This document shows positions 48,001 through 51,000 of a DNA stretch of 57,943 nucleotides, piece by piece. Source of the DNA: a virus (Duplodnaviria > Heunggongvirae > Uroviricota > Caudoviricetes); IMG/VR virus record IMGVR_UViG_643348545_000013, positions 1 to 57,943 of that record; one strand, given 5' to 3'. Each line of letters starts with the position of its first letter. Position 1 is the stretch's first letter. The position numbers are program-made.

Positions 48001-51000
48001 TTGAAACCAAATTCAAGATATAATTTGGGTATTATGGTAATCCCCGCGCACCTAATTATAAAAAAAGGTGAGGAAATTCAATTCCCTGACGGCTCTTCGG
48101 AATCAGTTTCACTTTTCATCGATACGAAAGATAGCCATTTTGAAACAGGGGTTGGCGGACAGGTAATAGTAACATTGAAAGAAATTAGGGTCCCAGCTAA
48201 AGGGCTGTATAGTGTTATAGGGATATTGCAAGATAATGAAGACCCTAAAAATGAACTTCATAAAAATGAATCATTTTTCACCGTAGAGCTATTATGAGTG
48301 ACGACAGTAATTTAAATAATCATGGAAAGCAAGACACCAACATATCTGAAAGCCGGAGGTTGAAGGTTGTTGGCGGTTCCGATTTTGAGGCTGAATTTGA
48401 TAATTCTCCCACCAAGGTGCAAAATAATTACATAAAACCGCCACAAACGGAGGAAGAAGTGGGAACGATCAGCAGAGAGGAACTTGATGCTCGCTTAGCT
48501 GCTAATAAAGCAGAGATGGAGTCTATTGCTTCTTCCATTAGGACTGACATGGCTCTATCTCGTGAAAGCGTTAATGTCCAATTTGCATCACTTAATGCAG
48601 CCATAAGCTCTCTATCGTCCAAGATCGATGGAAAGATGGATAGCGCTGCTGGCGATATAAAAGCAATTAATGGGAGATTCGAAGGAATTCAAGGACAAAT
48701 AACAGGGGTTAATACCGCAATTAGTGGTGTTCAGTCGGGTATTTCTATACGATTAGCCATTTTTAGTGTCATTATCGCTGTAATAGTTGCGATTCCCGGG
48801 CTGGTATCAGCTTTAAAGTCAGACCACGCACCTTTGCAACAGCCTTCCACTTTGCAAGCGCCGCCACAAAATACCCAGCCAACAGACAACAAAAAAATCA
48901 CTCCCCAGCATTAACGCATTAACCCGGCCTCAGCGCCGGGTTTTTTGTTGCCTGCACATAACTATCAGGACAGCACCTGCCAGCCAGCCCAAGCCTCTGA
49001 TTAAATTACTATAATTCTTAATACAACTCCCATATCCCGCCATCTCGTCACCACCTACTTCGCTCGTTTTTCGAACTTTTCAGCACACCATCCTGCTGTT
49101 TCCCCCGCCTTAAGTAAGCAAACCCATCGCGGGGAAAACTATTTACACAAAAAAATCATACACATAACGTGTCACACCCTTATTTTACACATTTTGTGAT
49201 TGACCATTAAATCACAATATGTGACTATTATTTCCATCAGCAGGACGCTGGTAGCCAAACGGAAAAGATTGGCAGGCTCTTTAAACAACGTCGAACACTC
49301 GACTACGTGGCTGAAAAGCCAGATCACCCAACCACATAAGCTGTGGGATGCAATGCCGAAGCAACCGTCTCAGGAGGAGCTTCGAGATTGCATCGCCAAA
49401 GTTTATTCGGGAGGAATCTATGTCCAGAAAAACAGAATTTAAAGGCACCGCAGCTTCTCGCCGTAGAGCTCGTCGCGCAAACCTGCAAAGTCAGGAGTCG
49501 ATTAGCTCCGACAAGCTACACAGGCCAACCCCTTCACGAGTGGTCTTGCAATGCAAGCGCAAACCAGCAATGAGAGCAGAAGTTATAACTCTGACAACGT
49601 TGACCAGAAAATATGAAGGTTCAACTTGTCTTCCAAACGTAGCCATTTACGCTGCAGGCTACCGTAAATCCAAACAACTGACAGCAAGATGACTTGTGTT
49701 GGTCGCCAGAAAATGAAATTAGGCAGCAAACCACTTATTTGAGAGGAATTAATATGTCATCAATCCGCTTAACTACGAGAATGAAAGAGGAAATCGCTCG
49801 TAACGCTTTAATTAAGTCCGGGGTGTTCACTGAACTTGAAGAAGTAACAAAGTTAAAGAACCAGCTTGCACTTGACGCCAGAGTTATTGCGTTTGGCGGG
49901 AAAAAGAAAACCGAAGAAGTGGACCAGCTGGCATCAAAGTTAATGGCTGCAAGTGAGGAACTTCAAAAGCTGGGATGTTCATTTTACTCATGCGATGTCA
50001 GTTCATGTTCGATTTATCTGACTGTATCTGGAAGAAGGGTTGGCTGGCATTCATACGGAAAAGACGGCAACGGTGAAGATATATTGCTCCCTACCCCCGA
50101 CAAAGATAAGTGCATGTTTGACGCAGAACACAAAATAACAAAAAGGTTTGATGAAATCTGCGCATTGCAACAAAAACTTGAAGCCAGGAAAAAGGATATA
50201 GAATCAAACGTATGGGCTGCTTTGAACTCAGTCACAACAGTTAAGCGACTTATTGAAGTTTGGCCTGAAAGCAAAGAGTTGCTACCAAAAGAAGCAGATA
50301 AAGCAAGTGCAGCACTTCCTGCTTTACGGGTAGAAGATTTGAATAAGATGATTGGACTTCCTTCCGAGGCCGCATAATCGGCCTTTATTTTTGGCATAAA
50401 CAACAGAATAAACACTGCACTGTGTATTCATTCCAACGAGTGAATACACGGAGCAATGTCGCTCGTAACTAAACAGGAGCCGACTTGTTCTGATTATTGG
50501 AAATCTTCTTTGCCCTCCAATGTGAGGGCTTTTTTATATGCATACCAATAACGCTTCACTAGAGGCGTTTTCGTTATGTGTAAATAAATAAGGAGCACAC
50601 CATGCAATATGCCATTGCAGGGTGGCCTGTTGCTGGCTGCCCTTCCGAATCTTTACTTGAACGAATCACCCGTAAATTACGTGACGGATGGAAACGCCTT
50701 ATCGACATACTTAATCAGCCAGGAGTTCCCAAAAATGGATAAAACACTTATGGCTATCCAGACTAAATTCACTATCGCCACTTTTATTGGTGATGAAAAG
50801 ATGTTTCGTGAAGCCGTCGACGCTTATAAAAAATGGATATTAATACTGAAACTGAGATCAAGCAAAAGCATTCACTAACCCCTTTCCTGTTTTCCTAATC
50901 AGCCCGGCATTTCGCGGGCGATATTTTCACAGCTATTTCAGGAGTTCAGCCATGAACGCTTATTACATTCAGGATCGTCTTGAGGCTCAGAGCTGGGCGC

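Follow-up and report, generated by a model that had tools for sequence, protein, structure and literature searches.

The window (the whole 57,943-nt stretch analysed, positions 1 to 57,943 of IMG/VR record IMGVR_UViG_643348545_000013) carries a cIII gene with a stop at codon 47 and a gam leader that is one C shorter than that of lambda. Very probably, its cIII, kil and gam are ordinary circulating alleles in an apparently intact, Stx-phage-like lambdoid genome. The earlier note had presented both changes as damage, a premature stop truncating CIII and a deletion disrupting the GamL extension. This reading is unsupported, as the alleles are common, the CIII domain is complete and the GamL extension is not conserved; both changes occur commonly as natural variants among lambda-like phages. 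A short CIII and a closed GamL frame are already known and ordinary, and, as judged from the sequences, neither variant touches a part of CIII, Kil or Gam known to be functional.

Differences from lambda in the cIII-kil-gam region

The region at 50560-51260 of the window (701 nt) was aligned pairwise with lambda NC_001416 (33463-32816), which has the same gene order. This alignment, proposed earlier as the check on the claims, gave ~98% nucleotide identity across the 701 nt, the differences being 11 substitutions and three indel events; they are real and the window is not lambda wild type. A difference of ~2% across the region is ordinary allelic divergence. The features concerned are the following:

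50602..50742, + strand: cIII, 46 aa (MQYAIAGWPVAGCPSESLLERITRKLRDGWKRLIDILNQPGVPKNG) followed by a TAA stop (ORF list)
50740..50742, + strand: cIII stop TAA (lambda TCA, Ser47), in which 50741 is a C/A polymorphism common to kil codon 3 (lambda alignment)
50743..50766, + strand: lambda-type cIII tail NTYGYPD and TAA, untranslated in the cIII frame (sequence and lambda alignment)
50735..50878, + strand: kil, 47 aa, K3 allele (MDKTLMAIQ...), with an AGGAG Shine-Dalgarno sequence at 50721..50725 (sequence and Pfam)
50833..50898, + strand: 'GamL' frame remnant of 21 codons, its ATG lacking a Shine-Dalgarno sequence (ttataaaaaATG) (ORF list and sequence)
50879..50882, + strand: C4 homopolymer (lambda C5), a 1-nt deletion directly 3' of the kil stop (lambda alignment)
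50879..50951, + strand: kil-gam spacer, 73 nt, with a terminator-like hairpin at 50902..50919 (sequence and hairpin scan)
50952..51248, + strand: gam (GamS), 98 aa, intact (ORF list and Pfam)

At cIII and kil the changes reported in the earlier note were all recovered. Codon 47 is TAA in place of the lambda TCA, giving a 46-aa CIII (alignment and ORF list), and the lambda-type cIII 3' end and stop are still present in frame downstream (50743..50766). The variant base, 50741, also opens kil codon 3 (50741..50743), where CAA becomes AAA and the protein change is Q3K. Compared with the window, lambda has eight extra CIII C-terminal residues (SNTYGYPD), Kil Q3 and a cIII/kil overlap of 32 nt, as against 8 nt at the ATGGATAA junction of the window. 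Three synonymous differences from lambda lie just 5' of the cIII stop (50727 T, 50730 C and 50733 A) and had gone unmentioned.

In the gam leader the frame from the GamL ATG at 50833 closes after 21 codons (ORF list), and the GamS start at 50952, which opens a 98-aa ORF, is intact, both as previously described. One C is indeed missing; the site given for it, 'ttccctg', is not correct, the loss having occurred in the C5 run after the kil stop (lambda cactaaCCCCCtttcctg, window cactaaCCCCtttcctg).

Translation of cIII is controlled by a structured leader. The window leader differs from that of lambda at 50568..50583 by a 4-nt GTAA insertion (at about 50580..50583, ~20 nt 5' of the ATG), and the T-run that follows the hairpin at 50550..50569 has one T fewer than in lambda. 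Four terminator-like hairpins were found within 1 kb, where 0.9 +/- 1.1 would be expected, three of them just upstream of cIII (50366..50569) and one in the kil-gam spacer (50902..50919). This arrangement agrees with the cluster of tL2 terminators in the HK620 annotation.

The short CIII protein

Residues 1-46 of the window CIII are identical to residues 1-46 of lambda CIII in the alignment. Both proteins match the Pfam family Lambda_CIII (PF02061, cut-off 25.7 bits) over the same residues, 2-43, which in the window protein correspond to model positions 1-42 of 42, with scores of 106.1 bits for the 46-aa protein and 105.4 bits for the 54-aa lambda protein. An NCBIfam scan of CIII, Kil and GamS together with the lambda proteins returned no families, so family membership rests on Pfam.

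In an alignment of 17 CIII family members conservation ends at P43. Beyond residue 46 both length and content are variable (e.g. SNTYGYPD, HDYCAC, NDYCY and YDHYAN), and the NG end of the window protein is found in 8 of the 17 sequences, its own included, down to 63% identity to the window. The sequence that encodes the former tail has been kept in the window because it is also the 5' part of kil; G*NTYGYPD was likewise seen by tblastn in the Escherichia coli SCU-104 prophage, HK620 and HK629.

Kobiler et al. (2007, PMC1838920) state, citing Kornitzer 1991, that CIII residues 14-37 are essential and sufficient for activity, and describe CIII as itself an FtsH substrate. This central amphipathic region is intact in the window and identical to that of lambda. 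The 46-aa protein would thus be a 'short-tail' FtsH inhibitor, ending ...QPGVPKNG just past the conserved domain. Since the domain and residues 14-37 are identical to those of lambda, its mechanism is most likely unchanged, with FtsH blocked competitively and CII accumulating as in lambda; FtsH inhibition and CII stabilisation by the 46-aa CIII are most likely retained. More generally, we infer that the protein activities of the window CIII, Kil and Gam are unchanged.

Frequency and age of the cIII stop

The exact 60-mer spanning the stop occurs in 14 of 211 matching phage records, among them HK620, HK629, JEP4 and nine Stx1a-converting phages, and 104 of the 1108 E. coli records that matched also carry it. 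In IMG/VR the TAA allele (...AATGGATAAAAC...) was found in 98 contigs and the lambda-type TCA in at least 120, allele counts that are skewed because E. coli genomes have been sampled clonally. At least 1000 public contigs carry the exact 46-aa protein under the name 'protease FtsH-inhibitory lysogeny factor CIII'. The RefSeq entry for HK620 carries the note 'protein shorter than similar proteins due internal stop codon', and it is on this note that we rely, a literature search for the original description of HK620 having given nothing beyond papers with a passing mention of it. In SCU-104, PGAP treats the 46-aa CIII as an ordinary CDS and not as a pseudogene.

At least six synonymous backgrounds carry TAA, the background of lambda itself among them. 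That of the window, GTT-CCC-AAA-TAA, is the commonest (42 contigs). The synonymous changes are linked to the stop (GTT with TAA, GTC with TCA), and TAA is also found on the lambda background. The number of backgrounds shows that the cIII TAA did not arise by a fresh mutation but is a polymorphism of long standing that recombines.

The occurrence of both TAA and TCA at appreciable frequency in many backgrounds would also be consistent with adaptive tuning, in which the short tail alters the turnover of CIII, or the 8-nt overlap couples kil more tightly, or both, such that the lysis-lysogeny decision or the dosage of Kil differs between alleles. That CIII is an FtsH substrate (PMC1838920) and that the overlap geometry differs (8 nt at ATGGATAA vs 32 nt) speak in the same direction. 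The tail at residues 47-54, however, is an alternative frame of kil, is not conserved and lies outside the region sufficient for activity, and we consider tuning of this kind improbable. The 46-aa and 54-aa forms might nevertheless differ in FtsH-dependent turnover or in the coupling of kil translation.

The direction of the change may also be the reverse of that assumed from lambda. We put forward tentatively, as a possibility short of an even chance, that the short CIII (NG-TAA, the 8-nt ATGGATAA overlap and Kil K3) is the older state and that the 54-aa CIII and the GamL ORF of lambda are derived. The lambda CIII could then have arisen by stop loss, TAA to TCA, the reading then running on for eight codons in kil's alternative frame, and GamL could be a chance open frame that only the lambda-like clade has, not a conserved isoform.

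Comparison with known phages and prophages

HK620 cIII (NP_112048.1) and the HK629 cIII region share with the window the 46-aa length and the TAA at codon 47. The 60 nt around the cIII/kil junction are identical in all three, Kil begins MDK, and the ATGGATAA junction is present in HK620. The two phages differ from the window in having V36 in CIII in place of I36, a 37-aa Kil ending RSK where the window Kil has 47 aa, and a Sak4-like annealase and SSB where the window has gam-bet-exo. In the RefSeq record of HK629 (NC_019711; 1398..1637 of the extracted locus) Kil is given as an 80-aa ORF that runs, in the kil frame, from an upstream ATG across cIII, and no cIII is annotated. The short cIII looks to have caused this inconsistency in the annotation.

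A close relative over the 701-nt region is the E. coli SCU-104 prophage (NZ_CP053284.1, 3325712-3326412), with 99.9% identity and the same TAA and C4 haplotype. Its CIII, Kil and GamS proteins are identical to those of the window, and PGAP lists the 46-aa CIII and the 98-aa Gam as normal genes. The prophage covers 79% of positions 33000..57943 at 97.1% identity, so the two are mosaic relatives and not one and the same phage.

Three Salmonella-type loci (the protein of two of the three is named as Salmonella enterica) resemble the window at the junction: CIII ends ...QPGVPCNG-TAA, the overlap is the 8-nt ATGGATAA and Kil begins MDK. They differ from it clearly in DNA sequence, in CIII (74-83% identical, with a different N-terminus), in the length of Kil (37 aa) and in the downstream genes, which are of the Rad52 family and SSB with no gam.

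Kil K3

The window Kil scores 72.6 bits with Pfam Lambda_Kil, the family of ZipA-dependent FtsZ inhibitors (PF06301, cut-off 27.6), and its residues 4-47 are the same as those of lambda Kil, including the helix-turn-helix core. The exact K3 protein is found on 869 contigs. Naha et al. (2025, PMC11762379) place the core at residues 4-38, and report that Kil without residues 1-5 still inhibits division, though less efficiently, and that the related HK629 Kil without its first five residues is active and ZipA-dependent; the HK629 form assayed therefore had no residue 3. The K3 change is a necessary by-product of the cIII stop codon, falls outside the predicted core and is expected to be neutral.

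Gam and the kil-gam spacer

GamS is the form that was used for the structure of the RecBCD-Gam complex. The window GamS covers positions 1-98 of the 98 in the Pfam model of the host-nuclease inhibitor Gam (PF06064, 214.3 bits) and matches lambda GamS at 95 of 98 residues, differing at I22, A61 and I63; it has a Shine-Dalgarno sequence, AGGAG, at 50940..50944, 7 nt 5' of the ATG at 50952. The exact protein is present on 998 contigs. The 138-aa Gam ORF of lambda matches the same 98-position model at residues 41-138 only.

The C5 run of lambda leaves this 138-aa 'GamL' ORF open, whereas the C4 run of the window closes it. No open frame begins at an ATG 40 codons 5' of the GamS Met, and the frame continuous with the window GamS, open for only 32 codons upstream, contains no ATG. 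Seven diverged Gam homologues (70-76% identity; Citrobacter, Klebsiella, Raoultella, Pseudescherichia and others) were compared. All seven are 98-aa proteins that begin at the GamS Met, with no in-frame ATG upstream in any of the seven loci, the upstream frame closing after 1-38 codons. A Shine-Dalgarno sequence of the caggag/caggaa type precedes six of the seven genes and tgaggtg the remaining one. By these comparisons the GamL extension is not conserved as coding sequence.

The missing C lies in the kil-gam spacer, which would thus be non-coding; the real gam would be the 98-aa GamS, served by a strong ribosome-binding site of its own. The window phage is predicted to make GamS only, and the integrity of GamS and of its ribosome-binding site argues that RecBCD inhibition would be unaffected. 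GamL and GamS have been described as a pair of isoforms, each of them active when made from a plasmid (PMC5218532, PMC11610958), and a literature search for primary evidence on the 138-aa and 98-aa forms gave nothing relevant. As the literature treats GamL as a real isoform, the window phage may lack something that lambda makes.

A single base in a C-run is the classic type of sequencing or assembly error, and among the phage matches listed there was no full-length exact match to the C4 76-mer, both of which would fit a true sequence of C5. The C4 run, however, stands on several GamS backgrounds in 18 IMG/VR contigs. It is also found in 21 listed complete genomes of E. coli (27 records at >=99% identity), seven independent assemblies of O55:H7 among them, and the whole haplotype of the window recurs at 99.9% identity over 701 nt in the SCU-104 prophage. 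An artefact is very unlikely on these grounds. The 98-aa GamS is intact in all 17 C4 loci analysed, window included.

Two loci, in E. coli ECMA0423 and Shigella flexneri SFBU1023 (1501-1788 in each), contain an 83% gam homologue with no start at the GamS position, beginning SAYPIF... and preceded by ...LRLPQ; this is probably a degraded remnant in a cryptic prophage. Near-identical lambda gam regions also occur in 'genomes' of unrelated taxa (L009, L011, L012, L013, L015, L017 and others), among them Shewanella, Pseudomonas, Neobacillus, Oceanobacillus, Kitasatospora, Chromatium and Enterococcus. The contigs concerned are often about 48.5 kb long at ~1x coverage, and look like control or spike-in lambda DNA contaminating public assemblies.

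Linkage of the variants and the state of the prophage

The suggestion that the cIII stop is linked to the gam-leader deletion was rejected. All four combinations exist among the IMG/VR haplotypes (TAA/C4 6, TAA/C5 7, TCA/C4 10 and TCA/C5 73), and these are therefore two unrelated polymorphisms. The sole true coupling is the base shared between cIII and kil.

Relative to lambda, the window does have a stop within the annotated cIII ORF and a frameshift within the annotated 138-aa gam ORF, and truly broken versions are known in some IMG/VR contigs (29-aa CIII, CIII-Kil fusions and 40-aa Gam). It could be argued from this that the nonsense codon cripples CIII, that the frameshift removes a Gam isoform and that the prophage is decaying or less lysogenic. 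Loss of function of this kind is highly improbable here. Isolated phages carry the same alleles, as do hundreds to thousands of contigs, the conserved domain of CIII and the region 14-37 reported by Kobiler et al. (PMC1838920) are untouched, none of the seven diverged Gam homologues examined has the GamL extension, and the flanking N, bet and exo and other core genes are full length. Neither a loss of a conserved domain nor disrupted neighbours, the marks of a pseudogene, were found in the window.

The reading as ordinary circulating alleles makes the lambda reference annotation a poor yardstick, since CIII of 46 aa and Gam of 98 aa are normal in lambdoid phages. Annotation pipelines and readers should not flag either as truncated or frameshifted. 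A by-product of the analysis is comparative evidence that the GamL extension is unconserved and that the C-terminal tail of lambda CIII is dispensable and possibly derived.

Damaged variants among the IMG/VR loci, including those of proteins P0001 and P0008, comprise a 29-aa CIII, frameshifted CIII of 79-80 aa, a 40-aa Gam and truncated Kil. Frame fusions of CIII and Kil were also seen, with at least 60 aa open in the translated 180-nt stretch (...QPGVPKMDKTLMAIQ...).

Genome context

The cIII-kil-gam block of the pL operon (50602-51248) is followed on the + strand by bet (51254..52039) and exo (52036..52716). The repressor, an N-like antiterminator (49420..49692), O, P, bet, exo, the large terminase, capsid and integrase genes are all full length, and the reading of the window as a decaying prophage is therefore unsupported. 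The window is a mosaic, Stx-phage-like lambdoid genome, for which JLK-2012, VT1-Sakai and BP-4795 are the nearest relatives over positions 35000..57943 (~60% coverage, 93-95% identity). Further genes of the window are the following:

36060..38057, - strand: 665-aa phrog_143 protein, 'SASA family carbohydrate esterase' / YjhS-like
47809..48297 and 48294..48914, + strand: two genes, phrog_5893 and phrog_5820, directly after the cI-type repressor
49420..49692, + strand: N-like antiterminator, 90 aa, with the arginine-rich AASRRRARRA (phrog_271, E = 1.6e-25)
49754..50377, + strand: 207-aa protein, phrog_1965, named by PGAP in SCU-104 'Nmad5 family putative nucleotide modification protein'

In Stx phages a SASA esterase/YjhS-like gene follows stx. 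The ORF list contains no stxA-sized ORF upstream of 36060..38057 on the same strand, and no tRNA genes were found in the whole window. On the ORF list, the window looks like an stx-negative relative of the Stx phages.

Upstream of the N-like gene are repeats that resemble operators and a boxA-like ggctctttaa. At the N position of SCU-104, PGAP gives only a 69-nt 'regulator' pseudogene fragment, and N appears to have been missed by the annotation there.

Lambda has rexA and rexB directly after cI. The phrog_5893 and phrog_5820 pair at 47809..48914 may be an exclusion or defence cassette; the second gene ends in a hydrophobic stretch (IRLAIFSVIIAVIVAIPGLVSAL). The phrog_1965 gene fills the N-cIII interval, where lambda has ea10 and ral.
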